This document shows positions 1 to 12,205 of a stretch of 12,205 nt of DNA, one piece after another. The stretch comes from Promethearchaeati archaeon (GTDB lineage Archaea > Asgardarchaeota > Heimdallarchaeia > JABLTI01): assembly GCA_013166835.1 (NCBI GenBank), contig JABLTI010000120.1:1-12205 (forward strand). The letters run 5' to 3'. The notes beneath the pieces are model-generated. The model did not search any database, was not told the origin of the DNA, and was given only the letters and a program-made list of their open reading frames with translations. The position numbers and the translations under genes are program-made. Each line of letters starts with the position of its first letter. Positions within the stretch are counted from its first letter, which is position 1.

Positions 1-786
1 ACATTCTTTGGATTAGTTGATGATAATCTCACAAGTCAATTAGCACCAATTAGGAATATGATTCGTACTAAAGAAGATGGATTCAATCAAGTAACGACTA
101 CATGTTCAATGTGCTATAACACTCTTAAAAGAGCGAATATGCTTTTCAAAAACGATGAAGAAAAAGCAATGAGATTAAACGCTTTTATGTACGAAGAAGA
201 AGACTATGCAGGTGATGTAGAGGTTCTACATTTAATTGATATCATAAAGGATAAAATTGGTATCGAAAAATTAAGAGGAAAAATTGTTAATCCATTAAAA
301 GGACTAAAAATCGCTCCTTACTACGGTTGTACACTATTACGTCCAACTGAAGTTTCAGTGGATGAAAACACCGAAAAACCAACAATTATATCTGATTTGA
401 TTTTCGCTCTTGGTGCTGAAGCTGTGGAAGACCCCTATATGACTGAATGTTGCGGTTCTTACTTAACTGTAAAAGATAAACATCTAGTCGCTGATCGAAC
501 AAACAAAATACTCGGATCAATGACAAGAAAAGATATTGACCTCGTAATGGTATCTTGTCCATTATGTCAATTTAACTTGGATGCGCGCCAAAAAGAAGCT
601 AAAGAACTTAATCCCTCTTTCAAAGAGGTACCGATTGTTTATTTCACACAATTAATGGCTTTAGCATTAGGCAAAGATCCAAAGGAACTGGGTTTTGGAG
701 AACATAAAATTGATCCTACTCCCGTTTTAAAGAAACGGAAGTTATTGGGAACAGCTCAGAAAGTTCCCGTGAAAGCAAAGAATTAA
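1..786 (+). CDS. hdrB: Heterodisulfide reductase subunit B-like CCG-domain protein (5'-truncated; frame is open from base 1)
   Basis: Frame 1 has no stop from base 1 (TFFGLVDDNLTSQLAPIRNM...). CCG-domain motifs are TCSMCYNTLK, YYGC, ECCGS and SCPLCQFNLD, with PIVYFTQLMALALG at the end, as in HdrB. Confidence 0.85.
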   Translation, partial: TFFGLVDDNLTSQLAPIRNMIRTKEDGFNQVTTTCSMCYNTLKRANMLFKNDEEKAMRLNAFMYEEEDYAGDVEVLHLIDIIKDKIGIEKLRGKIVNPLKGLKIAPYYGCTLLRPTEVSVDENTEKPTIISDLIFALGAEAVEDPYMTECCGSYLTVKDKHLVADRTNKILGSMTRKDIDLVMVSCPLCQFNLDARQKEAKELNPSFKEVPIVYFTQLMALALGKDPKELGFGEHKIDPTPVLKKRKLLGTAQKVPVKAKN

Positions 787-796
787 GGTGGCAGAT

Positions 797-1489
797 ATGG
801 CAACCGAAATAAAACATGAAATGGTAAAAATAATTGTTGCAAACACAGAATTTGAGGTTCCGTCAAATCTAACGATAATGAAAGCCCTCGAGTATCTCGG
901 TTGGAGATTAGAGCGTGGAGTTGGTTGTCGTGGAGGTTTCTGTGGAGCCTGCAGTACAATCTATAGGTTACAAGGTGATCATAAACTCTACACAGGCTTA
1001 GCTTGTGCAACGAAAGTTGAAAATGGAATGTTGATCGCTCAAGTACCAATTAATCCTGCAAACAAGAAACAATACAACATTGAAGCATTAAAAGCTGAAC
1101 CAAGCACAATACTCGAATTCTATCCAGAAATTGCTCGATGTATATCCTGTAATACCTGCACAAAAGCATGCCCAATGGATATAGAAGTTATGGATTATGT
1201 CCAAGCGGCATTAAGAGGAGATATTGCTGATGCAGCTGAATTAAGTTTTGATTGCATTATGTGTGGCTTATGTGCAACAAGATGCCCAGCAGAAATTTCA
1301 CAATTTAATGTTGGTATTCTTGCACGAAGATTGAATGGGAGATACATTGTGCTAAAATACCAGCAAATGGATAAACGAGTAAAGGAAGTTGAAAAAGGCA
1401 CTTATGACGCAGAAATCGATAAAATGATGAAAGCAGACAAGAACGCTATAGCCAAACTCTACAATGCGAGAGTGAGGGAGGAAGACTAA
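797..1489 (+). CDS. Iron-sulfur subunit (SdhB/FrdB-like): N-terminal [2Fe-2S] domain plus two [4Fe-4S] motifs
   Basis: GCRGGFCGAC...LAC is the 2Fe-2S motif; CISCNTCTKACP and CIMCGLCATRCP are two CxxCxxCxxxCP motifs. ATG 797 is preferred over GTG 788 because AGGTGG at 786-791 is an SD for it. Confidence 0.88.
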   Translation: MATEIKHEMVKIIVANTEFEVPSNLTIMKALEYLGWRLERGVGCRGGFCGACSTIYRLQGDHKLYTGLACATKVENGMLIAQVPINPANKKQYNIEALKAEPSTILEFYPEIARCISCNTCTKACPMDIEVMDYVQAALRGDIADAAELSFDCIMCGLCATRCPAEISQFNVGILARRLNGRYIVLKYQQMDKRVKEVEKGTYDAEIDKMMKADKNAIAKLYNARVREED

Positions 1490-1510
1490 GAGGAACTGAG
1501 GTGCAAGAAA

Positions 1511-3163
1511 ATGACAGTAGATCCTTATCCAGATTATATGCGTGCATCAATTGAGAAAGTAGAAAAGACTCGAGATAAACGAGCAAAAGAAACCATAGAT
1601 CATTGTTCACCAGATGAAATAACAGATGTGTTGGAAAACTTCCATCCTGATTTCATTAAAGAACAAAAAACCAAACTACGGTTTGGAGTATCTAAAGGTG
1701 AAGTTGTTCCTCTTGAAGTTGCGAAAATTGTAGAAACAAAATCAATTCTAGATCCCAAAGCAATTGACTTGAATAAAGTCGATTTTGATGTTGATATTCT
1801 AATTGTTGGTGGCGGTGGTGCTGGTGCTAATGCTGCCTTATGGGCTATGAAAAGTGGTGTGAAACCAGAGAATATCCTAATTGTTACTAAACTAAGAATG
1901 GGAGATTCAAACACTACTATGGCTCAAGGTGGTATACAAGCAGCAGTAAGAAAAGTAGACAATCCAGCTATCCATTATTTAGATGCTTACGGTGGCGGTC
2001 ATTATGAAAATGATCCACCACTAGTTAAAAGACTAGTTAGAGATGCTCCACTCATTTTGAAATGGTACGAAGAATTAGGAATGATGTTTGACAAATTCGA
2101 CGATGGAACAATGGATGCAATTCATGGAGGAGGTACCTCCAGAAAGAGAATGCATTTCGGCAGGGACTTCACAGGTTTGGAAATAATGCGTACACTTCGT
2201 GATGAAGTCTTCAATAATAACATCAAAGTCATTGAATTCTCTCCAGCTGTTGAATTAATAAAAGATGAAACTGGTCAAGTTGCTGGTGCAGTTTTACTAA
2301 ATCTTGACAGTAAAGAATACATTACTGTAAAGGCAAAGGCAACTATTGTCACGACTGGTGGTTTTGGTCGTCTACACATTCAAGGATTTCCAACAACAAA
2401 CCATTATGGTGCTACTTTTGATGGTTGCATCATGGGTTACCGTGCTGGTGCTCCCTTGAAATTAATGAAATCAGTTCAATATCACCCAACTGGTGCTGCA
2501 TTTCCAGAGCAAATTGTTGGTTTGCTTGTAACCGAAAAGGTTCGAGGAAAAGGTGCCCAAGTTCTAAACAAAGATGGTGAACAATTCTGCTTCCCATTGG
2601 AAACTCGTGATGTTGAAGCGAGTTTACTCATTCGCGAGTGTCTTGGTAAGAAAAAGGGTTTAGTTACACCAACAGGTCAACATGGTCTTTGGTTAGACTC
2701 ACCTTTAATTGATGTCCTTCATGGTGAAGGTACCATAGAGAAGAACTTCGCAGCAATGGTGAAACAATTCGGAAGATTCGGTGTTGATATTGTACAAGAT
2801 CCTATGTTAATTTATCCAACACTCCACTACCAAAATGGTGGTTTAGCAATCAACGAATTCGCAGAAACAAAGATAAAGAACCTTTATGCTGCAGGTGAAG
2901 TTTGTGGTGGAACACATGGAAGTAACCGATTAATGGGTAACAGTTTACTAGAAATTAGTGTCTTCGGTCGAATTGCCGGTATAACTGCCGCAAAGAAAGT
3001 TGATAAAGTCAAACTAGGAAAACTAACACTCTCTCATGTCGACCAATACAATGCTCTCTGTGTTGAACACAAAGTCAAGAACCCACCATCTCCAATAATC
3101 TTCCCAGATTACACAGAAGCAAAACACAAAGGTAGAATCCTACCAACTGATTTCTTAGTATAA
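1511..3163 (+). CDS. Fumarate reductase/succinate dehydrogenase-family flavoprotein (FAD_binding_2) with an N-terminal extension; probably non-covalent FAD
   Basis: Motifs ILIVGGGGAG, TTMAQGGIQAA, VTTGGFG, QYHPTG, LVTEKVRGKG, ETRDV, PTLHYQNGG, LYAAGEV and GSNRLMGNSLLE. SD GAGGTG at 1498-1503. Confidence 0.92.
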   Translation: MTVDPYPDYMRASIEKVEKTRDKRAKETIDHCSPDEITDVLENFHPDFIKEQKTKLRFGVSKGEVVPLEVAKIVETKSILDPKAIDLNKVDFDVDILIVGGGGAGANAALWAMKSGVKPENILIVTKLRMGDSNTTMAQGGIQAAVRKVDNPAIHYLDAYGGGHYENDPPLVKRLVRDAPLILKWYEELGMMFDKFDDGTMDAIHGGGTSRKRMHFGRDFTGLEIMRTLRDEVFNNNIKVIEFSPAVELIKDETGQVAGAVLLNLDSKEYITVKAKATIVTTGGFGRLHIQGFPTTNHYGATFDGCIMGYRAGAPLKLMKSVQYHPTGAAFPEQIVGLLVTEKVRGKGAQVLNKDGEQFCFPLETRDVEASLLIRECLGKKKGLVTPTGQHGLWLDSPLIDVLHGEGTIEKNFAAMVKQFGRFGVDIVQDPMLIYPTLHYQNGGLAINEFAETKIKNLYAAGEVCGGTHGSNRLMGNSLLEISVFGRIAGITAAKKVDKVKLGKLTLSHVDQYNALCVEHKVKNPPSPIIFPDYTEAKHKGRILPTDFLV

Positions 3164-3167
3164 AATT

Positions 3168-3205
3168 GAAGGAATTTATTCCTTCTTCTTATTTCTTTTT
3201 ATTTT
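3168..3205 (+). terminator. Hairpin plus T-rich tract ending the hdrB/Fe-S/flavoprotein operon
   Basis: GAAGGAA-TTTA-TTCCTTC (3168-3185) lies just after the TAA at 3163 and is followed by TTCTTATTTCTTTTTATTTT. Confidence 0.6.
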
Positions 3206-3264
3206 ATAATTTAACACGAAATGTTATTTTAAGTACATCTCCATAATTCATTTGGCGATACTTC

Positions 3265-4455
3265 ATGAAGTACGATACAATAATAATTGGTGCGGGGGTT
3301 ATAGGAGCAAGTACAGCATACCACTTGAAACGTTTATCTCCGAAAAAGAAAATATTACTCATTGATAAAAATAACAAAGTTGCCGTCGGAAATACCGCTA
3401 AAAGTGCTGCTTTATACAGGAATCTTTTTTCGTCTAGAACAAGTCAGGTTTTGGCTAATAGCTCAATAAGTTACTATGAAAGTATCGCAGATAAAATCAG
3501 CTTGAAAGAACTTGGTTATTTTTGGATGCTATCTCAAGATGATTATCAAAAAGCAAAGACCGGATTAAGTAAGCTTGATGAAAAAAAGGACCGATTTGAA
3601 TTTTTGTCTGTTAAAGAAATACCTACAAATCTCAAGCTTAATACTTCAAAATCTGATGAATTTAGTGAAGTCGAATGCATTCTATATGGTCATCGTTGTG
3701 GTTCTCTCTCTGCAATAAAGCTAGCTAGATACTATGCCACACAATTTCAGAAGTTAGGTGGAGTAATACAGGTTCCTGCAAAAATTAAAAAAATAAATTT
3801 AACAGAAAAAAATCGATTTTACCCTCCTTGGTCCGATGTAAAAATTGATTCAATAACTGATCACAATGGAGTAGATTACTTTGCTGATGATTTCATTTTC
3901 GCCCTAGGTGCATGGACCCACTCTTTCTTATCTCAATATGGAATAGCTTCCCAAATATATCCTCAAAAACGTCAGATGTTTACATTAAAGATTAAGCCAG
4001 ACCAGATCGCTACTGATATTAAGCAGAGAATTCCAATTCTTGTTCTTCCAACTGGTGGTGTATACATTAAACCAGTCCTTCAAAACAGTATGGTAATGGT
4101 CGGTAGTGCCAATGAGCTAGGGAATCCATTTCAAATGGATGCCAATCCTCCAACTGCAGAAGAAGGTTATTTCAAAAATGCCATTGAGCCCGTTTTGAAT
4201 CATTATTTTCCGCACTTAAAAGATTATAGCATTTTCTCTAAATGGGCTGGTTATTATGCCTACTATTGGCCAGATAAAAATCCGGTTATAGAAAAAATTT
4301 CCAATATTCAATGGGTGAGTGGAACATCTGGTTCAGGTACAGCTGCAAGAAACCTATCTATGGATGAAGTAGAATTATTCGATGAAACCAAGTTTCAGGT
4401 AGCTGATTTATCATTGAAGAAAAGGAATGTAGATGCTGAAGAGCTAATAATCTAA
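3265..4455 (+). CDS. FAD-dependent oxidoreductase, DAO/glycine-D-amino-acid-oxidase family; possible in-frame deletion near the C-terminus
   Basis: Motifs YDTIIIGAGVIGASTAYHL, GNTAKSAA, FALGAWT, WAGYYAYYWPDKNPVI and SGTSGSG. Its stop overlaps the convergent TPR gene by 4 bp. Confidence 0.85.
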   Translation: MKYDTIIIGAGVIGASTAYHLKRLSPKKKILLIDKNNKVAVGNTAKSAALYRNLFSSRTSQVLANSSISYYESIADKISLKELGYFWMLSQDDYQKAKTGLSKLDEKKDRFEFLSVKEIPTNLKLNTSKSDEFSEVECILYGHRCGSLSAIKLARYYATQFQKLGGVIQVPAKIKKINLTEKNRFYPPWSDVKIDSITDHNGVDYFADDFIFALGAWTHSFLSQYGIASQIYPQKRQMFTLKIKPDQIATDIKQRIPILVLPTGGVYIKPVLQNSMVMVGSANELGNPFQMDANPPTAEEGYFKNAIEPVLNHYFPHLKDYSIFSKWAGYYAYYWPDKNPVIEKISNIQWVSGTSGSGTAARNLSMDEVELFDETKFQVADLSLKKRNVDAEELII

Positions 4456-6287
4456 TCTTGTTTGATAAATTCATAATATTTCCTTATGAATTCATCCCAG
4501 TGATCTATACGAGCAATTAATTCACCTTGTTGTCGAGTGATTTTTTCTGCAAGTTTAATTAAACCTTCTTCATCCGCCATATCACGAGCCTGTACCAAGA
4601 GTTTTTTCGCTTTTTGTATATCAATTTCGACAATTGAAAATTGAGCTTTTAACCAAAGTGTTAGTAGACGAATATTATTCGCTTCAATCTTGAGATTGTA
4701 GGCGTTTTGCTTCTTAGCTATCACTGTCAATGTTTCAGTGTAATTCTCTAGCTCGAGTAAAACTTCAGTGTCACCAGAAATACTGAATTCATTAATTAGT
4801 AACTCGCACAGATTAATCATAGCAAAAACTGTGAGAGTATGATTAAGTATCTCATCTTTAACCACTATTTCTAGAATCTCAATTGCTTTAATCCATTTTT
4901 TAGGCCTAGAACTGGCTTTTAGAATCAGAGCTTTTCCTACTTCAAGTGTTTGATTAAAATATCGGCTCTCATTTTCCCGAGTAATTTTGTCAAGTTTCTC
5001 CAAATAATTCTTAGCTAAATTAATATCTCCCTTATCAACTGATATAGTTATTAAAAGTAGTAATGTATCTATGAGATGATGAGTTACCTCCATTTTTGTT
5101 TGAACTCTCAAACTCTTTTGGGCATGATCCAATGCAAGGTTAAAATCTCCCTTTGCATGATAGATTTTCCCTAGAAGCTGTTGAGCTAAACCTATGGAAT
5201 AATTCTGAGAGCTCAAAGGTAAATTCTCAAGCGCATTCAGCGTTATATCTAATGCTAAATCAATTTTGCCTTGATCAAAATACATTGCAGCTAGGTTAAT
5301 AGAATTTAAATTAGCATGATATTTATCTCCAACTGATTCGTAAACCACAACACATTCTTTCATAAATTTAATAGCATCATCTAATTCCCCTTTTTTCCAA
5401 GCAACTAAAGCATCTTTCCATGATGCTTTTTGGGTAATCCTGAGATTTCTTATGTTACCTCGCATATTCGAGGCTTCTTGGAACAATTCAATCGCTTTAT
5501 CTAATTCCCCAATAAAATAGTGTGTTAATCCAATTCTGTACACTAGCTCATGATAATTTTTATTAATCGATTTTTGGATTTTAATGCCTTCTTCAAAAAC
5601 TTCTAAAGATTTACTATATTTACCAGTCCATTGATAATTAGCACCAATTATAGTATTACACTCTACTTCCGCTGCTTTATGCTCAATTTCTAAAGCAATC
5701 TCTTTCGCTTTAAAAGCAAAATCAATTCCTTGTTCATACTCTTCAGCGTGCATAGCAAGAACAGCTATCCATGTGTAGATATCCATAAGCAATTTCTTTT
5801 CATTTATCTTTTGTGCGAGTTTTTTAGCCTTTGTTAGAACTTCAAATGCTAGGTTTAATTCTGCCAATCTATCAAGATTAATTCCTTTGTAATACAACAA
5901 TGAAATTCTTTGTTTTGTCAGTTCCGCATTTTCCTTTTCTTCTATAATTTCTAATATTTCCTCTGCCTTTTCTATCGTTTCTAAACTTTCTCTGAATAAA
6001 GCTAATTGTTGTTTACATCGAGCTAGATCTATAAGAACTTCTAATTGTAATTCTTGATTATCCGATCCCTTACTCAACTCTAAAGCTTCTTCAACAAATT
6101 CCAGTCTTTTCTCAGGAGGAAATTCCTCTAGATTTCTACTATTCAAAAGCATAATTCTTACCAAAGCTTCTTTTGGTAAATTTCCCCTCTTATTCAATTT
6201 CTCTAATTTATCATGAGCAATTCTGAAATTATGCCAGTCAATATCTTTCTCAATAAGAGAGAGTTCTCTGTTTAATTTATTATCCAA
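4452..6287 (-). CDS. Tetratricopeptide-repeat protein with a conserved helical C-terminal domain (paralogue A)
   Basis: Repeated TPR helices such as IGANYQWTGKYSKSLEVFEEGIKI, IGLTHYFIGELDKAIELFQEA and LGKIYHAKGDFNLALDHAQKSL. TTG start with SD GAGGGG at 6298-6293. Confidence 0.88.
   Translation of the reverse strand: MDNKLNRELSLIEKDIDWHNFRIAHDKLEKLNKRGNLPKEALVRIMLLNSRNLEEFPPEKRLEFVEEALELSKGSDNQELQLEVLIDLARCKQQLALFRESLETIEKAEEILEIIEEKENAELTKQRISLLYYKGINLDRLAELNLAFEVLTKAKKLAQKINEKKLLMDIYTWIAVLAMHAEEYEQGIDFAFKAKEIALEIEHKAAEVECNTIIGANYQWTGKYSKSLEVFEEGIKIQKSINKNYHELVYRIGLTHYFIGELDKAIELFQEASNMRGNIRNLRITQKASWKDALVAWKKGELDDAIKFMKECVVVYESVGDKYHANLNSINLAAMYFDQGKIDLALDITLNALENLPLSSQNYSIGLAQQLLGKIYHAKGDFNLALDHAQKSLRVQTKMEVTHHLIDTLLLLITISVDKGDINLAKNYLEKLDKITRENESRYFNQTLEVGKALILKASSRPKKWIKAIEILEIVVKDEILNHTLTVFAMINLCELLINEFSISGDTEVLLELENYTETLTVIAKKQNAYNLKIEANNIRLLTLWLKAQFSIVEIDIQKAKKLLVQARDMADEEGLIKLAEKITRQQGELIARIDHWDEFIRKYYEFIKQD
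4468..4492. repeat. 9-bp inverted repeat AATTCATAA-N7-TTATGAATT inside the last codons of TPR gene A
   Basis: AATTCATAA at 4468-4476, loop TATTTCC, TTATGAATT at 4484-4492. The same arms occur at 6439-6463. Confidence 0.7.
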
Positions 6288-6425
6288 TAAAACCCCTCAT
6301 AGAAGCCACAATAACTTAAATTGATTAACATACAATTTTTATAACTATTAATTTTTTTGAAAAAAAGTTCTTATTATTTAATCTGCTTTCTTCTTTTCTT
6401 CACAATTTCTCGATTTAGGGGAATT

Positions 6426-8234
6426 TCAGCTTCTTATAAATTCATAATACTTTCTTATGAATTCATCCCAATTTTCAAATTTTTCAAGCATTTTATCATA
6501 TTGAGTTGTTATTTTAGATGCTAATTTTATCAAACCATGTGAATTAGCTAATTCTCGTGCTTCTTGTAGCAACCTTCGAGCATTTTGTATATTGATATCC
6601 AGCTTTGAATGTTGAGCTTGTAACCATAGTGAAATAATGCGAATGTGATATGCCTCAACTCTTAATGTATAGGAGTTTTGTTTTTGAGCAATATCCAGTA
6701 ATCTGCTGGTATGTGTTTGCAAATCGTTTAATACATCTTCATCACCTGAAATACTGTATTCATTTAGTAAGATTTCACATAAATTAATCAATGCAACAAG
6801 AGTAGTATTATAAGTTGCAATAGGTTCACATACTATTTCTTCCAAAATATCAATGGCTTGTGTCCAATATTTTGGTCTGCCTTTCGATTTTAGAACTAAC
6901 GCATTAGAGAGTTGATAATTTTGTCTAACAATTCTATTATCTGTTTTTGTAGAGAGTTCTTTTAGTTGATTTAGATATGAATCTGTTTCATCAAAACTTT
7001 CTTTTTCTAATAAAAATGTAATAAGAAAACGAAGTGTTTGAGCAATATCTTGTTTATTACCCATTGCCATTCGAAGATCTAAACATATTTGTGCATGAAA
7101 AAGAGCATTTTCATAATCATTTTTCTCGTGGTAAATCTTCATTAAACTAAAATGCGCCCAACCCAAACCATATTTATTTTCGATGTTCCCTAGAATTCTT
7201 AATGCTTCTTTAGCATGTTCTAACGCTTTCTCTAATTCCCCTCGGAAAAAATAAACTGTTGAAATACCAACTTGGCTATAACCAATGGTAGCTAGATGTG
7301 GAAAAACACTCGCAAGTTCAATTGTTTTCTCGTATAATTCCATAGCTTCATCCATTCTTCCAATTCGGGAATTTAAATTTGCTAGAATAAAAGTAACTAT
7401 GAAATTTTTGTCAATATCTTCAGACTCATGGAATTTTTCTAATCCACGTTCAATATATTCTAATCCTTTCTCTAATTCTCCTTCACGCCAATAACTATCA
7501 CCTATACTCGCTATAGCATGAGGGTATTCGCCAGTAATTTTGATTCTTTCTTTAAAACATTCTCTAGTTTTTCTATAATCTCCTATTTCAGCATAAGTTA
7601 CTCCTAGGTTATGCAATAGGTGTGCAACATTAAGCTCATCTCCTAATTCTTTGAAATGTTGTAACGCTTGTTTTTGATATTTAAGACATAAATCATATTC
7701 ACCTAACGTACCAAATCCATTCCCTAACCAATGTAATGTTTGACCTTTAATAACACTAAGTGAATTTTTTTCTGCAAAATCTAGTGATTCTTGAAGCCAT
7801 TTAATTGATTCTTTTGGTTTATAGAGAAAATTGTAGATAAACCCCTTCCAATATAACAGCCAACCTTTATTTTCAATTAATCCTGTCGTTAGTTTTTTTT
7901 CCTTTTCTAATATTTTCTCTCCATGATTAATTACTTTTAATGCTTCTTCTAATTTCCAATTTCCTTGGAATATATTAATTCTCAGGATCAGATTTTCAAG
8001 TACCTTTTCCCAATCTTTATTTTTGGTATATATTTCAATTGCTTGATCAACAATTCTATGAGCTTCATTAAACTTGTTCGAATAGATGAGAATTCGAATT
8101 TTAAAATTAGTGATTTTCTTTTTTTGAGCAGCATTTAATTCATCTTGCTTTTCAATTTCTAAGATAGTATTTAAGCATTCATCATATTTCCTATTCTTAA
8201 ATAACTCAAGTACCTTTTCTAAACCATCATTCAT
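6426..8234 (-). CDS. Tetratricopeptide-repeat protein with a conserved helical C-terminal domain (paralogue B)
   Basis: TPR repeats such as LGNGFGTLGEYDLCLKYQKQAL, LGVTYAEIGDYRKTRECF and IGDSYWREGELEKGLEYIERGL. The C-terminal ~158 aa align without gaps to paralogue A; both carry WDEFIRKYYEFI just before the stop. Confidence 0.88.
   Translation of the reverse strand: MNDGLEKVLELFKNRKYDECLNTILEIEKQDELNAAQKKKITNFKIRILIYSNKFNEAHRIVDQAIEIYTKNKDWEKVLENLILRINIFQGNWKLEEALKVINHGEKILEKEKKLTTGLIENKGWLLYWKGFIYNFLYKPKESIKWLQESLDFAEKNSLSVIKGQTLHWLGNGFGTLGEYDLCLKYQKQALQHFKELGDELNVAHLLHNLGVTYAEIGDYRKTRECFKERIKITGEYPHAIASIGDSYWREGELEKGLEYIERGLEKFHESEDIDKNFIVTFILANLNSRIGRMDEAMELYEKTIELASVFPHLATIGYSQVGISTVYFFRGELEKALEHAKEALRILGNIENKYGLGWAHFSLMKIYHEKNDYENALFHAQICLDLRMAMGNKQDIAQTLRFLITFLLEKESFDETDSYLNQLKELSTKTDNRIVRQNYQLSNALVLKSKGRPKYWTQAIDILEEIVCEPIATYNTTLVALINLCEILLNEYSISGDEDVLNDLQTHTSRLLDIAQKQNSYTLRVEAYHIRIISLWLQAQHSKLDINIQNARRLLQEARELANSHGLIKLASKITTQYDKMLEKFENWDEFIRKYYEFIRS
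6439..6463. repeat. 9-bp inverted repeat AATTCATAA-N7-TTATGAATT inside the last codons of TPR gene B
   Basis: AATTCATAA at 6439-6447, loop TACTTTC, TTATGAATT at 6455-6463. Confidence 0.7.
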
Positions 8235-8383: not shown

Positions 8384-8986
8384 CTAAGATTTTTTCTTGA
8401 TTTCACCTTTCTTAACTTTCACTTCTTTTTCAAGTTCATCAATTTTACTTTCAAAAATATCTAATTTTACTTTTCGACCATCTAATCTTTCTCGGTTTGC
8501 TAGTTCTGCTTCCATAAGATATAGTAGTGTTTGTTGTTGCATTCTTTCCTCTAAATTTTCAGTATTTTCTTGAATTTGAATGGTAACTTCCTTTATTTTC
8601 TGCAATGAGGAATTTTCTTTAGCAGCCAAATAATTTTTGTTGATAGTGCCCATCACAATGTTTTCCAATATTTCACTAAATGGTGCTTTTTCTTGAATCC
8701 TCTCGCGGAATTCTTCTACAAGTGATTCTAAATCTTGTACTCCCATTAACGCAATTTCACTTGGAGTAATCTTTTTCCAGGAGAACTTGTACACTTCATT
8801 GAAAACACCATCATCAAGAATTTCTTCTAGTGAATCAGATGAAAACATAGTTTGTTTTTCTAGTTTTTTAACTTCCTCTTCTAATACTTGCATTTTCTGT
8901 TTCTTGCGCTCATGATAAGCTTTTTGTCGTTCAGACCTTGTTTCATATTTCCTTGGACGACCTGCTTTTCTTTTTTCTTCTGGCAT
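8384..8986 (-). CDS. Putative DNA-binding regulator: AT-hook, bZIP-like basic helix/short zipper and C-terminal coiled coil
   Basis: KRKAGRPRK is an AT-hook (core GRP). It is followed directly by RQKAYHERKKQKMQVLEEEVKKLEKQ. The gene is divergent from the palindrome-bearing genes. ATG 8986 was chosen; GTG 8995 is the alternative start. Confidence 0.65.
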   Translation of the reverse strand: MPEEKRKAGRPRKYETRSERQKAYHERKKQKMQVLEEEVKKLEKQTMFSSDSLEEILDDGVFNEVYKFSWKKITPSEIALMGVQDLESLVEEFRERIQEKAPFSEILENIVMGTINKNYLAAKENSSLQKIKEVTIQIQENTENLEERMQQQTLLYLMEAELANRERLDGRKVKLDIFESKIDELEKEVKVKKGEIKKKS

Positions 8987-9018
8987 ACTACCCACTCATT
9001 ATAACATCTAACTTAAAT

Positions 9019-9047
9019 CATATAAATATTTTCGTCTTACTACAAAA
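9019..9047 (-). promoter_or_regulatory. Operator box 1 (9030-9047) and adjacent TATA box (TTTATATG, 9026-9019, minus strand) of the putative regulator gene
   Basis: The minus strand reads TTTTGTAGTAAGACGAAA-ATA-TTTATATG, the same box-to-TATA geometry (within 1 bp) as the promoters at 9998 and 10912. Confidence 0.65.
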
Positions 9048-9072: not shown

Positions 9073-9090
9073 TTTTATCATTCTACAAAA
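9073..9090. promoter_or_regulatory. Operator box 2
   Basis: TTTTATCATTCTACAAAA matches TTTTGT-N6-ACAAAA with one arm mismatch. Confidence 0.6.
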
Positions 9091-9097
9091 CCCTCGG

Positions 9098-9156
9098 CAA
9101 AATACTTAAATATTTATACATCTATATTTGTCCCGAGACAAAAATTCTCTGGGAGG
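9098..9156 (+). promoter_or_regulatory. Promoter of secreted paralogue 1: BRE/TATA (CAAAATA-CTTAAATA), operator box 3 (9126-9143) and SD GGAGG (9152-9156)
   Basis: CAAAATACTTAAATA mirrors CAAAATACTTATATA at 10011-10025. Box 3 is ATTTGTCCCGAGACAAAA. Confidence 0.65.
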
Positions 9157-9165
9157 AGAAGAAAA

Positions 9166-9933
9166 ATTAAGTTAAAACATAAAAAAATAACATTTGTGTT
9201 CTTACTGCTTAGTTTACTCTTGACAACTATGGTTTCAGTTATTTCAGATGATGACGATGATCAAGTAGTTACCATACTAATCTGGTTGGAACATCCGGAA
9301 AAACAAGTAATAATTGATGAAATAATTCGTGCACTTGAAGAATGTGATTTGGAAGTAAATGCATTATATATGCCAACTTTTGAAGAATGGGCGGATTATG
9401 AAGGAGATTTTGATCTCTGGTACGGTGGAATTCAGTCTTTACCAAGAGATGGAGATATTTTCATGTATGCTTTCATTAATTATTTGCTATACGAATTTAT
9501 TATGATGTATGAAGATGCAAAAATCTCCAAAAATGTTGGCAAGCTCTGGGACATGTATTGGGAAGCAATGGATGACCCTGATGTTGTAGATGAAGCATTC
9601 ATAGATGATATGGTTGATGCATTCCAAGACATCGAAGAACGTCTTTGGGAAAAACAATATCTTTCAGTTTTTAACCGATGGTTAGAACCATCTTCATTCG
9701 AATGGGGGGACGTTCCTACAATGAAGACAGAAACACTCGGATACAATTGTTTGCCTGGTTACGTTTTTGCAGACCCTGCATTAAGATTAGAATTAAATGA
9801 GGAAATCGATCGTGATGTCTTTTTAGACTATCATTCATCCTATAATCCCTACAGTACCTATGAGGTTTATCACGCCTTCCAATGGTTGCCGTTCCACGAT
9901 ACTTCTTTACCAAATGAATATCCTGATGCTTGA
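9166..9933 (+). CDS. Secreted acidic protein resembling a circularly permuted domain III of family-5 ABC solute-binding proteins (paralogue 1); probable ATT start
   Basis: SD GGAGG, 9 nt, then ATT, giving the signal peptide IKLKHKKITFVFLLLSLLLTTMVSVIS. Motifs GDFDLWYGG, FQDIEERLWEKQYL and YNCLPGYVFADPALRLELNEEIDRD. The ORF-track start at 8938 runs through promoter DNA and overlaps the divergent gene. Confidence 0.7.
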   Translation: MKLKHKKITFVFLLLSLLLTTMVSVISDDDDDQVVTILIWLEHPEKQVIIDEIIRALEECDLEVNALYMPTFEEWADYEGDFDLWYGGIQSLPRDGDIFMYAFINYLLYEFIMMYEDAKISKNVGKLWDMYWEAMDDPDVVDEAFIDDMVDAFQDIEERLWEKQYLSVFNRWLEPSSFEWGDVPTMKTETLGYNCLPGYVFADPALRLELNEEIDRDVFLDYHSSYNPYSTYEVYHAFQWLPFHDTSLPNEYPDA

Positions 9934-9958
9934 TGAATTTATAACTCAATAATTAGTG

Positions 9959-9990
9959 TCCGGTTTTTAACCGGATCACACCTCTTTTTT
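9959..9990 (+). terminator. Hairpin plus T tract after paralogue 1
   Basis: TCCGGTT-TTT-AACCGGA (9959-9975), followed after a short spacer by TCTTTTTT (9983-9990). Confidence 0.65.
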
Positions 9991-9997
9991 CTAACAT

Positions 9998-10069
9998 TTT
10001 CGTAGAACTACAAAATACTTATATACACTACTAAATATATTTTGTCATGCTACAAAATCCTCTGGGAGG
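9998..10069 (+). promoter_or_regulatory. Promoter of paralogue 2: box 4 (9998-10015), TATA CTTATATA (10018-10025), box 5 (10040-10057) and SD GGAGG (10065-10069)
   Basis: TTTCGTAGAACTACAAAA and TTTTGTCATGCTACAAAA start 42 bp apart and flank the TATA box. Confidence 0.8.
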
Positions 10070-10078
10070 AGAAGAAAG

Positions 10079-10855
10079 ATTAGACTAAAACACAAAAAAA
10101 TAATTTCTTTAATAATACTGATGAGCTTCTTATCCTTACCTTTAGTGGGATCAAATGCATCAAAAGGGCAAGAATACATAGAGGTTGAGTATATTTGGGA
10201 GGGATACTTCCCAATTCCAATTGTGGAAGAGATGCAAGTGCAACTCTTTAAAGATGCCTTTGCAGAAGCTTTGGAATATGGTATCAAATTTACTCTACGA
10301 GCTGAGGGAGATATAGATGCTATTCTCGCTAGCGGAGATTATGACATAGTTAACTATTATCGTCCTAGAATGCCTGGTGATTCCTTTGAGATCCTTTTAT
10401 TTACCCTTGAAGACATGTTTCTCGATGGTTTGATTCAACACCGATGTTCACAACTTGAAAGAAAAATCATAAAACTACAAAGAATATATGATAGTTACAT
10501 CATTGCTGAGGGTGACAAACAGGTTCAACTTGAAGAAAAATTCATTGCAGAATTTCACAAAATTGAGCGAATTCTCTTTGAAAAGCAATTAATCTATGAT
10601 TACTGTTATTTCCCACCACCTGAGGCACCAATGATATTTTGTGACAAAATGAGTGTACTTAATTCAGCAAAAGGTCATGTTTTTTCCAACAATCATTTAC
10701 GTATTGCTATGGCTAATGTTTTCGATCGAGATTTCGTATGTGAAATCGTAAAGGTAGCACTTTCATTTATCGGTTTAGAATCAACTCAGTCCTATCATCT
10801 CTTTGGCTGGTCACAATATCACGACACTACTTTGCTTGAAGGTGTGCCTACATAA
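10079..10855 (+). CDS. Secreted protein resembling a circularly permuted domain III of family-5 ABC solute-binding proteins (paralogue 2); probable ATT start
   Basis: SD GGAGG, 9 nt, then ATT at 10079, in frame with ATG 10121. This gives the signal peptide IRLKHKKIISLIILMSFLSLPLVGSNA. Motifs YGIKFTL, SGDYDIV, FHKIERILFEKQLI and LNSAKGHVFSNNHLRIAMANVFDRD. Confidence 0.7.
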   Translation: MRLKHKKIISLIILMSFLSLPLVGSNASKGQEYIEVEYIWEGYFPIPIVEEMQVQLFKDAFAEALEYGIKFTLRAEGDIDAILASGDYDIVNYYRPRMPGDSFEILLFTLEDMFLDGLIQHRCSQLERKIIKLQRIYDSYIIAEGDKQVQLEEKFIAEFHKIERILFEKQLIYDYCYFPPPEAPMIFCDKMSVLNSAKGHVFSNNHLRIAMANVFDRDFVCEIVKVALSFIGLESTQSYHLFGWSQYHDTTLLEGVPT

Positions 10856-10875: not shown

Positions 10876-10904
10876 AACCGGATTCGCATCCGGTTCCTTT
10901 TTTT
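10876..10904 (+). terminator. Hairpin plus T tract after paralogue 2
   Basis: AACCGGAT-TCGC-ATCCGGTT (10876-10895), then CC and TTTTTTT (10898-10904). Confidence 0.75.
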
Positions 10905-10911
10905 ATCTGAT

Positions 10912-10982
10912 TTTTGTAGAACTACAAAATTCTTATATAGTACTTAAACTATATTTTGTCACACTACAAAATTGTTTGGAGG
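10912..10982 (+). promoter_or_regulatory. Promoter of the DUF4242-like gene: box 6 (10912-10929), TATA CTTATATA (10932-10939), box 7 (10954-10971) and SD GGAGG (10978-10982)
   Basis: TTTTGTAG-AA-CTACAAAA has perfect 8-bp arms; TTTTGTCACACTACAAAA starts 42 bp further on. Confidence 0.8.
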
Positions 10983-10993
10983 AAAAAACAAGT

Positions 10994-11272
10994 ATGGCGA
11001 AATTTTTGGTCGTTCATCCGGTGCCCATACCTGCAACAATAGAGGAAGCAACTCCAATTGGAAAAGCTTTCAAAGGATTGAGTAATAAGGATGCTTATTG
11101 GGTGAAGAGTTGGGCAATATTCGATGAGGAAGGAAAAGTAACAAAAATCTTATGTCAATGGGATGCAAAGGATATGGACTCCGTAAAGAAGCTTACCGAT
11201 AAAGTCGAAGCTATTCCTACTGAGGGAATTTATCCGATGGGCATCTTCCATGGCGAGGATTTCAGAGAATAA
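10994..11272 (+). CDS. Small DUF4242-like protein (dimeric alpha+beta barrel)
   Basis: The pattern MAKFLVVH...YWVKSW...KILCQWDAKDMDSV...IPTEGIYP resembles DUF4242. ATG 10994 follows SD GGAGG; the ORF-track TTG at 10976 overlaps the SD. Confidence 0.6.
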   Translation: MAKFLVVHPVPIPATIEEATPIGKAFKGLSNKDAYWVKSWAIFDEEGKVTKILCQWDAKDMDSVKKLTDKVEAIPTEGIYPMGIFHGEDFRE

Positions 11273-11842: not shown

Positions 11843-11977
11843 CAATCCTTCTTTCTTCTTTTATTTACAAACAACAACATTCATTTACTTGAAAGAACAT
11901 TAATTCTCTAGTTTATTGATAGAGTAGTATTTGCATTTGTTAAATTTCCATTACTAAAATGAACGTTGGTGACCAAT

Positions 11978-12205
11978 TTGTCGATTTATGATGACATGCT
12001 TAGTGACGAAGAATACTTGAAAAAGTATGATCTTAAGAGAAATCCTTTTGATAAAATTTCAGCTGAATCCATGACTGCTGATGAAATTACCAATATGCAT
12101 GTAATTACTGCTGCGGACAAGAAGATTGCTTCTAATCTCTCTACTATAATAAATGGTGGTTCAGCTACTGTTGCTCTTATAGGGGAATACGGTTCAGGTA
12201 AATCT
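11978..12205 (+). CDS. P-loop NTPase/AAA+ ATPase, N-terminal fragment (3'-truncated; not in the ORF track)
   Basis: TTG 11978 follows SD GGTGA (11968-11972). The frame is open to the window end: SIYDDMLSDEEYLKKYDLKRNPFD...TVALIGEYGSGKS (Walker A). Confidence 0.8.
   Translation, partial: MSIYDDMLSDEEYLKKYDLKRNPFDKISAESMTADEITNMHVITAADKKIASNLSTIINGGSATVALIGEYGSGKS

Follow-up and report, generated by a model that had tools for sequence, protein, structure and literature searches.

A predicted AT-hook and basic-helix transcription factor with palindromic operator-like sites in a Heimdall-type Asgard archaeon

Recognisable transcription factors are held to be scarce in archaea, and almost all that are known rely on helix-turn-helix folds. 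The Heimdall-type lineage of the Asgard archaea is the closest archaeal relative of eukaryotes. Here we describe a 12,205-nucleotide stretch of DNA from this lineage, called the window throughout (GCA_013166835.1, contig JABLTI010000120.1; contig C42 of a genome bin of 3.56 Mb in 260 contigs). It encodes a 200-residue protein, the regulator, in which an AT-hook is followed by a basic helix and a short zipper-like stretch, and a cluster of palindromes stands around its gene. We conclude that the regulator is probably a sequence-specific, autoregulated local transcription factor that acts on 18-bp palindromes. In the archaea most closely related to eukaryotes, its family would thus combine a eukaryote-like DNA-binding architecture other than helix-turn-helix with an operator code that can be read.

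Apart from the AT-hook, the regulator finds its best sequence matches in both the PDB and Pfam among eukaryotic basic leucine zipper (bZIP) proteins, especially those of the Pap1/Yap/HapX type (PDB entries 1gd2 and 7aw7). It shares with them an unbroken run from the basic helix into the heptads, an x9 spacing, a basic region that ends in an RERK-type string and, putatively, palindromic targets. It departs from them in scores that stay below the family cut-offs, in the lack of the Asn/Arg signature from every one of 70 relatives, in an arginine that replaces alanine and in a zipper of two heptads, and also in its N-terminal AT-hook and its extra C-terminal helical domain. The site measures 18 bp and keeps its conserved parts on the outside; bZIP sites measure 8-10 bp.

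Other described proteins share single aspects of this design. GvpE of haloarchaea has been called bZIP-like and binds next to the B recognition element (BRE). FrzCD of Myxococcus has an N-terminal DNA-binding domain labelled 'DB (bZIP-like)' (PMC12077210). As they are described, both differ from the regulator in having no AT-hook and in their other partner domains. A 2025 preprint on AmzR (MA2561), a PAS-GAF repressor of methanogens, likens its paired basic helices to leucine zippers ('akin to'), and its authors raise combinations of homodimers and heterodimers (10.1101/2025.05.05.652248). Like the regulator, AmzR comes from archaea and is proposed to hold DNA between paired basic helices, in a way reminiscent of bZIP and basic helix-loop-helix proteins; it acts as a repressor at promoters. 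AmzR is a large ligand binder with disulfide-linked dimers and no AT-hook, whereas the regulator has 200 residues and gives no PAS or GAF match in Pfam at E<=10. AmzR is a precedent for the principle, from an unrelated family.

The AT-hook has its own parallels. HMGA and plant AHL-type proteins have the same GRP core with flanking basic residues, and the string GRPRKY also turns up in papers on plant AHLs. Their hooks are minor-groove anchors of low specificity and usually come in several copies; the regulator, in contrast, has a single hook, fixed 4-6 residues before a conserved basic helix. Literature searches on bZIP, leucine-zipper, AT-hook and motif-string topics yielded no paper on this Heimdallarchaeial family, and none that reported a function for its GRPRxY..AERQxAYRER unit.

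The regulator protein and its family

The regulator gene occupies 8384..8986 (-) within an open reading frame (ORF) at 8384..8995. We take the ATG at 8986 as the start, and the translation from there begins MPEEKRKAGRPRKYETRSERQKAYHERKKQKMQVLEEEVKKLEKQ; both M1 and a GAGTGG-like Shine-Dalgarno sequence are kept in the upstream regions of orthologous genes. A first-pass annotation of this DNA had singled out 8852-8974 as an AT-hook fused to a Yap/AP-1-like bZIP segment in a probable archaeon. On the (-) strand these positions encode residues 5-45, KRKAGRPRKYETRSERQKAYHERKKQKMQVLEEEVKKLEKQ, and their conservation in 70 aligned relatives shows that the feature is real and not a product of chance. 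The AT-hook, the basic helix and a zipper-like stretch of two heptads all stand, whereas membership of the bZIP or Yap family is not supported: scores remain below cut-off, residue 20 is an arginine, and residue 25 is never an arginine in the close family.

Three parts can be told apart in the protein. The predicted AT-hook comprises residues 5-15, KRKAGRPRKYE (8942..8974, -), as judged from the conserved GRP, the nonhelical course of the model and a weak match to Pfam AT_hook (PF02178; 14.9 bits against a cut-off of 17.4) in which the core KAGRPRK is present. A continuous helix then spans residues 17-44 (8855..8938, -), according to both conservation and an AlphaFold2 model, and leads from a basic region with R20, A23, Y24, R27, K28 and K29 into the a/d positions M32, L35, V39 and L42. 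The rest is an all-helical C-terminal domain, residues 50-199 (8390..8839, -), delimited by the alignment and the model, with the conserved blocks WKKITPSEIALMG and QQQTLLYLMEAELANRERL.

The model was built from the family alignment and has a mean predicted local distance difference test (pLDDT) score of 82, with values of 88-90 over residues 21-40. Residues 1-16 are extended and residues 17-44 form a single helix. Helices of the C-terminal domain cover residues 50-58, 75-80, 83-100, 103-122 and 128-199, the last about 70 residues long. This domain gave no match in the PDB by Foldseek at E<=0.001 and no usable match in an ESM Atlas feature search. A wide search with VIA-align returned generic three-helix-bundle and spectrin-like matches at Z<=9.4, which is below the meaningful level for helical bundles, and neither Pfam nor NCBIfam holds a family for it. 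From the model, the domain possibly serves oligomerisation or partner binding.

The regulator has 71 relatives among the 5.8 billion proteins searched, and almost all of them are 190-230 residues long. Every relative with a name is a Heimdallarchaeota or Asgard archaeon protein, so the earlier guess of a probable archaeon was right. The family of roughly 200-residue proteins is so far seen only in Heimdall-type Asgard archaea. Conservation was counted in an alignment of 70 of these close relatives. Each of G9, R10, P11, R20, A23, Y24, R27 and K28 is found in 68-69 sequences, L35 and E36 occur in all 70, and L42 and E43 are nearly invariant. The zipper register M32/L35/V39/L42 had been read correctly from the single sequence, and its positions stay hydrophobic throughout: methionine (55), leucine (9), valine (4) or isoleucine (2) at position 32, valine (57), leucine (7) or isoleucine (6) at position 39, and leucine (64), isoleucine (3) or a single phenylalanine, methionine or tyrosine at position 42. 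Pfam AT_hook matches 43 of the 70 at E<=1, and some wider relatives exceed its cut-off (P0089 with 18.0 bits, P0117 with 28.3 bits). One family member of 54 residues consists of the AT-hook, basic helix and zipper alone. A subgroup of longer members (L013, L015 and L016; 280-320 residues) has the same N-terminal module and a different C-terminal part.

Palindromic sites at the regulator locus and before family genes

The general form of the site, TTTYGT-N6-ACRAAA (18 bp), was read from the regions upstream of family genes in other genomes. With at most two mismatches, the window contains seven clustered sites, starting at 9030, 9073, 9126, 9998, 10040, 10912 and 10954. The first, TTTCGTCTTACTACAAAA (9030..9047), abuts the TATA box of the regulator gene itself, ATATTTATAT (9020-9029, -), a placement that implies autoregulation. 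The second, TTTTATCATTCTACAAAA (9073..9090), is 43 bp from it in the divergent intergenic region, and the third, ATTTGTCCCGAGACAAAA (9126..9143), is of a different inner type and immediately precedes the divergent gene's Shine-Dalgarno sequence; both are kept in orthologous loci.

The promoters of the next two genes each have a pair of sites 42 bp apart. In the second target promoter, O1 (TTTCGTAGAACTACAAAA, 9998..10015) ends 2 nt before the TATA box CTTATATA (10018-10025), and O2 (TTTTGTCATGCTACAAAA, 10040..10057) covers the expected transcription start just before the Shine-Dalgarno sequence. The third target promoter repeats this layout. Its O1, TTTTGTAGAACTACAAAA, has 8-bp perfect inverted arms and stands 2 nt before the TATA box, again CTTATATA (10932-10939), and its O2 (TTTTGTCACACTACAAAA, 10954..10971) again lies over the expected start and before the Shine-Dalgarno sequence. 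The neighbouring operator named in the first-pass annotation is this O1, found exactly at 10912-10929, and the site at 9998-10015 is a one-mismatch copy of it. Four orthologous loci keep both the site pairs, at a spacing of 40-42 bp, and the divergent target genes.

The sites concentrate at this locus. Of the 8 occurrences of the strict form in the 3.56-Mb genome, 5 fall within 2 kb of the regulator gene; forms with other spacers occur 4-6 times per genome. The sequence CTACAAAA is found 8 times in the window against an expectation of 0.93, a count that none of 200 shuffles reached, and the pair CTACAAAA-N34/35-CTACAAAA is found three times in the whole genome, always in the window. The short core GTAGNNCTAC, the pattern named in the first-pass annotation, shows no enrichment by itself (2 matches, 1.62 expected); the signal is carried by the longer 18-bp pattern and the paired arrangement. 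The string GTCYCGRGAC, present three times in the genome, is uninformative alone. We also considered whether the palindromes are ends of repeat elements or parts of an RNA structure, and rejected both, as they keep a fixed position beside TATA boxes and are lacking in the rest of the genome. Rfam has no RNA family in the window.

The same arrangement recurs before other members of the family. We examined 30 distinct family genes of related genomes, 29 of which have at least 80 nt of upstream sequence. In 22 of the 29, a site with at most two mismatches starts at -62..-59 from the ATG, beside the TATA box, where the background is 0.016 per 20-nt window. These 22 are all of the roughly 200-residue members of paralogue groups A-D that were examined, and the groups share 40-47% identity with one another. 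The 54-residue member has a perfect palindrome, TTTCGTGTTAACACAAAA, at -60.

Across these genes the outer arms are constant, and the inner bases differ by paralogue group, mostly in both half-sites. The basic region ERQKAYH, that of the window protein, goes with the inner half-site GTAG, DRSRAYY with GTG(T/A)T, ARQKAYY with a two-residue insert with GTA(T/A), DRQRAYY with GTAAC or GTATC, and ERKKAYR, or AARKKAYR in a paralogue on contig C21 of the same genome, with GTC(C/T)C. In the longer members L013, L015 and L016, the upstream sites belong to the GTC(T/C)C type and stand at distances outside -62..-59. Changes of the inner bases accompany changes at residues 17-19, 21, 22 and 25. A fixed position and conserved arms, at identities where neutral intergenic DNA would be scrambled, together with symmetric changes inside, are what a dimeric, self-regulating binder predicts. 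The geometry proposed in the first-pass annotation, with basic helices on the centre and AT-hooks on the T4/A4 flanks, fits the sites well, since the flanks are conserved, the centre is variable and the linkage to the locus is tight.

The C21 paralogue extends this picture. Its type keeps TTGTCCCG sites upstream in three genomes. In the 3.56-Mb genome, TGTCCCGAG occurs twice, at 9129 in the divergent promoter of the window and at C21:12926, 37 nt before the start codon of the paralogue. Because it is confined to these two places, the sequence suggests cross-regulation, with the window site at 9126..9143 as a predicted target of the C21 paralogue.

Some observations tell against a self-regulating dimer. 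Seven of the 29 genes (the divergent L002 and L012-L017) have no site at -62..-59. Five of these genes show sites at a different distance instead, and the 300 nt upstream of L014 and L017 contain no site with two or fewer mismatches. Orthologues and paralogues inherit the gene and its upstream DNA jointly, so the counts overstate independence, and common ancestry could account for part of the covariation between site and protein. Across the genome, the relaxed pattern TTYGT-N6-ACRAA does not rise above background (40 occurrences against 30-38 for other spacers), which leaves only the local clustering significant. Finally, the own-promoter site of the window's group is asymmetric inside (TTTTGTAGT and TTTCGTCTT).

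We propose that two protomers would bind one palindrome TTTYGT-N6-ACRAAA. The invariant GRPR AT-hooks would enter the minor groove at the outer T4/A4 tracts. R20, A23, Y24, R27 and K28, which the family conserves in its basic helix, would read GT/AC, and residues 21, 22 and 25, beside the zipper, would read the inner bases near the dyad. The helices would be joined at least in part by the M32/L35/V39/L42 zipper, and probably by the all-helical C-terminal domain as well. Three neighbouring genes have their TATA box and expected transcription start framed by a pair of sites spaced 42-43 bp, or four helical turns, and this arrangement suggests cooperative repression at paired sites. Given the layout at the BRE/TATA region and the start, the most likely outcome is repression by occlusion of TFB/TBP and RNA polymerase; alternatively, the BRE-proximal site may serve activation. 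The system is small, at 200 or even 54 residues and 18-bp sites, and lends itself to direct tests by gel shift and structure determination.

A more ambitious reading is that a family of minimal bZIP-like factors is radiating in Heimdallarchaeia, that each has its own inner operator code, and that paralogues pair for combinatorial control as in eukaryotic bZIPs, with a tetratricopeptide repeat (TPR) protein as sensor, whether as an independent archaeal invention or as the prokaryotic root of bZIP. Symmetric GTAG/CTAC sites would then take a homodimer of the window protein, the GTCCC/GAGAC site the C21 paralogue, which has the N-x7-R string of bZIPs, and hybrid sites such as GTAG/AGAC and GTCA/CTAC heterodimers. 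Taken as a whole, we regard this scheme as rather unlikely.

Likeness to bZIP factors and a wider prokaryotic unit

How far the likeness to bZIP proteins goes can be judged from profile searches. For the window protein, Pfam bZIP_2 (PF07716) falls short of its cut-off of 22.3 bits with a score of 17.4 (E=0.0046), aligning residues 24-46 to profile positions 19-41, and bZIP_1 (PF00170) is not among its Pfam matches. Among the 70 relatives at E<=1, bZIP_1 matches 25 (best 0.0013) and bZIP_2 matches 20 (best 0.0029), and none reaches either cut-off. Family profiles do better. Against all PDB chains, the whole-family profile ranks the bZIP chain 7aw7_D first (E=2.5e-4), followed by GCN4 (0.078-0.16) and Pap1 (1gd2; 0.089). 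The N-terminal profile gives 8.1e-4 for 7aw7_D and 0.056 for Pap1, level with the non-bZIP coiled coils TNIP1/2 at 0.037-0.068. The profile alignments to 7aw7_D are ungapped over the basic region and zipper. Single sequences do not reach significance (E=0.32 to 7aw7_D for residues 1-60 of the window protein, and 0.35 for the paralogue). Overall, the matches from the profile comparison recommended in the first-pass annotation are weak. When bZIP_2 is run over the genome in six frames, the paralogue and the window gene rank top with 20.9 and 19.4 bits, and the third match has 12.9; bZIP models also give weak matches in all 14 control prokaryote genomes.

A bZIP is defined by an N-x7-R signature, in which small residues (Ala-Ala or Ala-Gln) at signature positions 4-5 face the bases. 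HMMER alignments to 7aw7_D place the Asn at residue 17, the Ala pair at 20-21 and the Arg at residue 25. Residue 17 is arginine in the window protein and, counting the six commonest residues of the 70, R in 38, G in 14, Q, T and D in 4 each and K in 2. Residue 25 is histidine in the window protein and H (37), Y (26) or L (6) among the 70, with arginine in none. The alanine position is not kept either, as residue 20 is arginine in 69 of the 70 relatives and in 117 of 124 cores from the wider superfamily described below. The R-x9-L spacing is present, from residue 25 to the invariant L35 within the single predicted helix 17-44. The zipper covers two heptads, M32/L35/V39/L42, and then gives way to T46 and S49, where about four or more heptads would be expected. 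One of the defining features is therefore present and four are absent. The signature itself does occur in the C21 paralogue (NAARKKAYR) and in many distant relatives, so the suggestion that homologues might restore Asn and Arg holds for these and fails for the 70 close relatives, none of which has arginine at residue 25.

The sequence comparisons do not support membership of the bZIP or Yap family. On the functional side, cognate palindromic sites, to which binding is putative, stand in the regulator's own and in neighbouring promoters. By analogy, the architecture is bZIP-like, and the bZIP label is a reasonable description of a possible working mode. For the dimer itself, a bZIP-like forked arrangement is our tentative proposal, one about which we remain slightly more doubtful than confident.

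The unit shared with other prokaryotes bears on how such a protein would bind. A profile of the first 54 residues, made from 17 sequences, was run against 1.84 billion representatives and found 571 proteins at E<=0.001, 44 of them at E<=1e-10. The matches outside Heimdall archaea are small, mostly bacterial-looking proteins, many shorter than 80 residues, with the unit GRPRxY-x3-AERQxAYRERxK at the N- or C-terminus and sometimes twice per protein. Among 147 newly listed wider representatives, 111 contain the strict core, in 124 copies; of these, 101 have Arg at residue 25, 38 have Asn at residue 17 and 31 have Asp there. The prokaryotic and phage unit is clearly homologous to regulator residues 5-31, with which it shares the G, R and P of the hook and R20, A23, Y24 and R27. 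These proteins differ from the regulator in that none has the Heimdall C-terminal domain and most lack the zipper. Pfam names the AT-hook alone in them, NCBIfam has no family for the GRPRxY unit or for the regulator family, and PHROGs gives weak matches to families of unknown function (e.g. phrog_10506, 9651, 6334 and 28252). The caveats attached to the first-pass annotation have therefore been borne out: the Asn/Arg pair is absent, the zipper runs over a short distance, and many small bacterial and phage-like proteins carry the GRPRKY..ERQxAYRER motif. If our reading of the regulator is true, it would assign a function to this widespread, unnamed unit of bacteria and phages.

The basic-helix core also turns up beyond prokaryotic-looking proteins. 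A protein of the tick Ixodes scapularis (P0120) has ERxKAYRERKK as 4-6 tandem repeats, and the core is present in the eukaryote-looking P0112 and P0148, one of which has a DUF6570 domain.

Several of these features weigh against a zippered dimer. Two heptads are short for a stable zipper. In 72 of the 111 motif-bearing wider proteins, the two zipper positions lack hydrophobic residues, and many of the zipperless proteins stop directly after the basic stretch. Some proteins of the wider superfamily carry two AT-hook/basic units in tandem, and in the subgroup L013, L015 and L016, 11 extra residues separate the basic region from the aligned zipper. Zipperless and tandem units indicate that each unit may bind DNA on its own. 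It is accordingly conceivable that each AT-hook/basic-helix unit of the regulator binds one half-site alone, that helix 17-44 is no zipper, and that pairing comes about through the C-terminal domain or the DNA only. Such a mode would agree with the occurrence of the unit alone, in tandem or at the very C-terminal end of numerous unrelated prokaryotic proteins, with no coiled coil behind it, with conserved outer arms that are 12 bp apart centre to centre, and with a C-terminal domain that ends in a 70-residue helix. It leaves the invariance of L35/E36 and near-invariance of L42/E43 in the 70 members unaccounted for, however, and the 54-residue member has its perfect palindrome at -60 with no C-terminal domain to pair through. 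The bases nearest the dyad also vary with residues 21-25, as a forked pair of helices would predict. We consider independent half-site binding unlikely.

That the regulator is a true divergent member, or a prokaryotic forerunner, of the eukaryotic bZIP superfamily by common descent is less likely still, and we regard it as improbable. The idea draws on the ungapped best match of the family profiles to 7aw7_D, with GCN4 and Pap1 next at 0.06-0.16, on bZIP_1 and bZIP_2 as the commonest Pfam matches after AT_hook, on the R-x9-L spacing, on N-x7-R in the paralogue and in the many distant relatives counted above, and on a host lineage that is the closest archaeal kin of eukaryotes. Against it, no member reaches a Pfam cut-off, the models match weakly in every control prokaryote, single sequences fall short and TNIP1/2 coiled coils do as well as Pap1. 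A profile of 42 zipperless units found no bZIP in the PDB at E<=10, so the superfamily-wide unit has no detectable bZIP likeness, and the signal stems largely from the junction of basic region and coiled coil. A signal that appears only with the coiled coil attached fits convergence better than descent. The arginine at the alanine position points the same way, as do the best matches, 7aw7 and Pap1, which are of the derived fungal Pap1/HapX type and not the general bZIP consensus; likeness to a derived type fits convergence better than ancestry. The hope that this protein would bear on the prokaryotic origin of bZIP factors was not borne out, given the Pfam scores and the zipperless unit, and the family currently gives no support to claims on that origin.

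A general chromatin or nucleoid AT-hook protein, with the palindromes as promoter elements or as targets of another factor, for example one working with TPR proteins, would suit the low specificity of AT-hooks for A/T tracts, an A/T-rich genome (window GC 0.29-0.40) and sites that overlap the BRE/TATA region, but it is most improbable in view of sites that are restricted to the regulator locus and keep the same distance to family genes from one paralogue group to another, with inner bases that are specific to the group, and of Pfam searches that found no other DNA-binding domain in the neighbouring genes.

Neighbouring genes and other features of the window

The paired sites precede three genes. 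Target gene 1 (9166..9933, +; 255 residues) is divergent from the regulator gene and has a weak SBP_bac_5 match (E=0.035); its synteny is kept in orthologous loci. Target gene 2 (10079..10855, +; 258 residues) is its paralogue and has weak Pfam matches. The N-termini of both look like signal peptides or membrane anchors by eye. Both have probable ATT starts, at 9166-9168 and 10079-10081, which follow a strong Shine-Dalgarno sequence, GGAGG(AG), at a spacing of 6-8 nt. With the ATG/TTG starts as listed, the lysine-rich and hydrophobic N-terminus would be lost, and an orthologous locus keeps the reading ATT AAx TTx AAA at the start of the target gene. Target gene 3 (10976..11272, +; 98 residues), also syntenic, encodes an SCO4226-like protein (PF14026, E=1.5e-5, 25.5 bits against a cut-off of 28.5), for which an ATG at 10994 is an alternative start. 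After each of the two genes for secreted-looking proteins there is a similar AACCGG...CCGGTT hairpin with a T-run, at 9955-9980 and 10876-10904. These look like terminators, which implies that each target has its own promoter.

The regulator gene is followed immediately, on its own strand, by a gene for a MalT-like TPR protein of 602 residues (6426..8234, -) and then by that for a second TPR paralogue of 611 residues (4452..6287, -), both assigned by Pfam and sharing 36% identity over 403 residues. The order of regulator and then TPR gene is found in 14 of 23 loci. Six of the other nine loci end within about 500 nt downstream, and three have sequence there but no TPR gene; in two of those three, a TPR gene lies directly upstream of the regulator instead. 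A TPR gene also follows the 54-residue family member (L051), and its product is 32% identical to the 602-residue protein of the window. On the strength of this conserved gene order, the TPR protein of about 600 residues is a candidate partner or signal sensor of the regulator. The two tandem TPR proteins (4452-8234) both end in a conserved ...WDEFIRKYYEFI(R/K) tail.

Elsewhere in the window, an open-ended ORF at 11966-12205 (+) weakly matches the N-terminus of BrxC/BrxD, a BREX ATPase (E=3.9e-4, 19.9 against 22.2 bits), and a defence locus may start there. At the opposite end, 58-4455 (+) holds a redox cluster with CCG cysteine-rich and 2Fe-2S/4Fe-4S ferredoxin-like proteins, an FAD_binding_2 flavoprotein (E=2e-65) and a DAO-type oxidoreductase.

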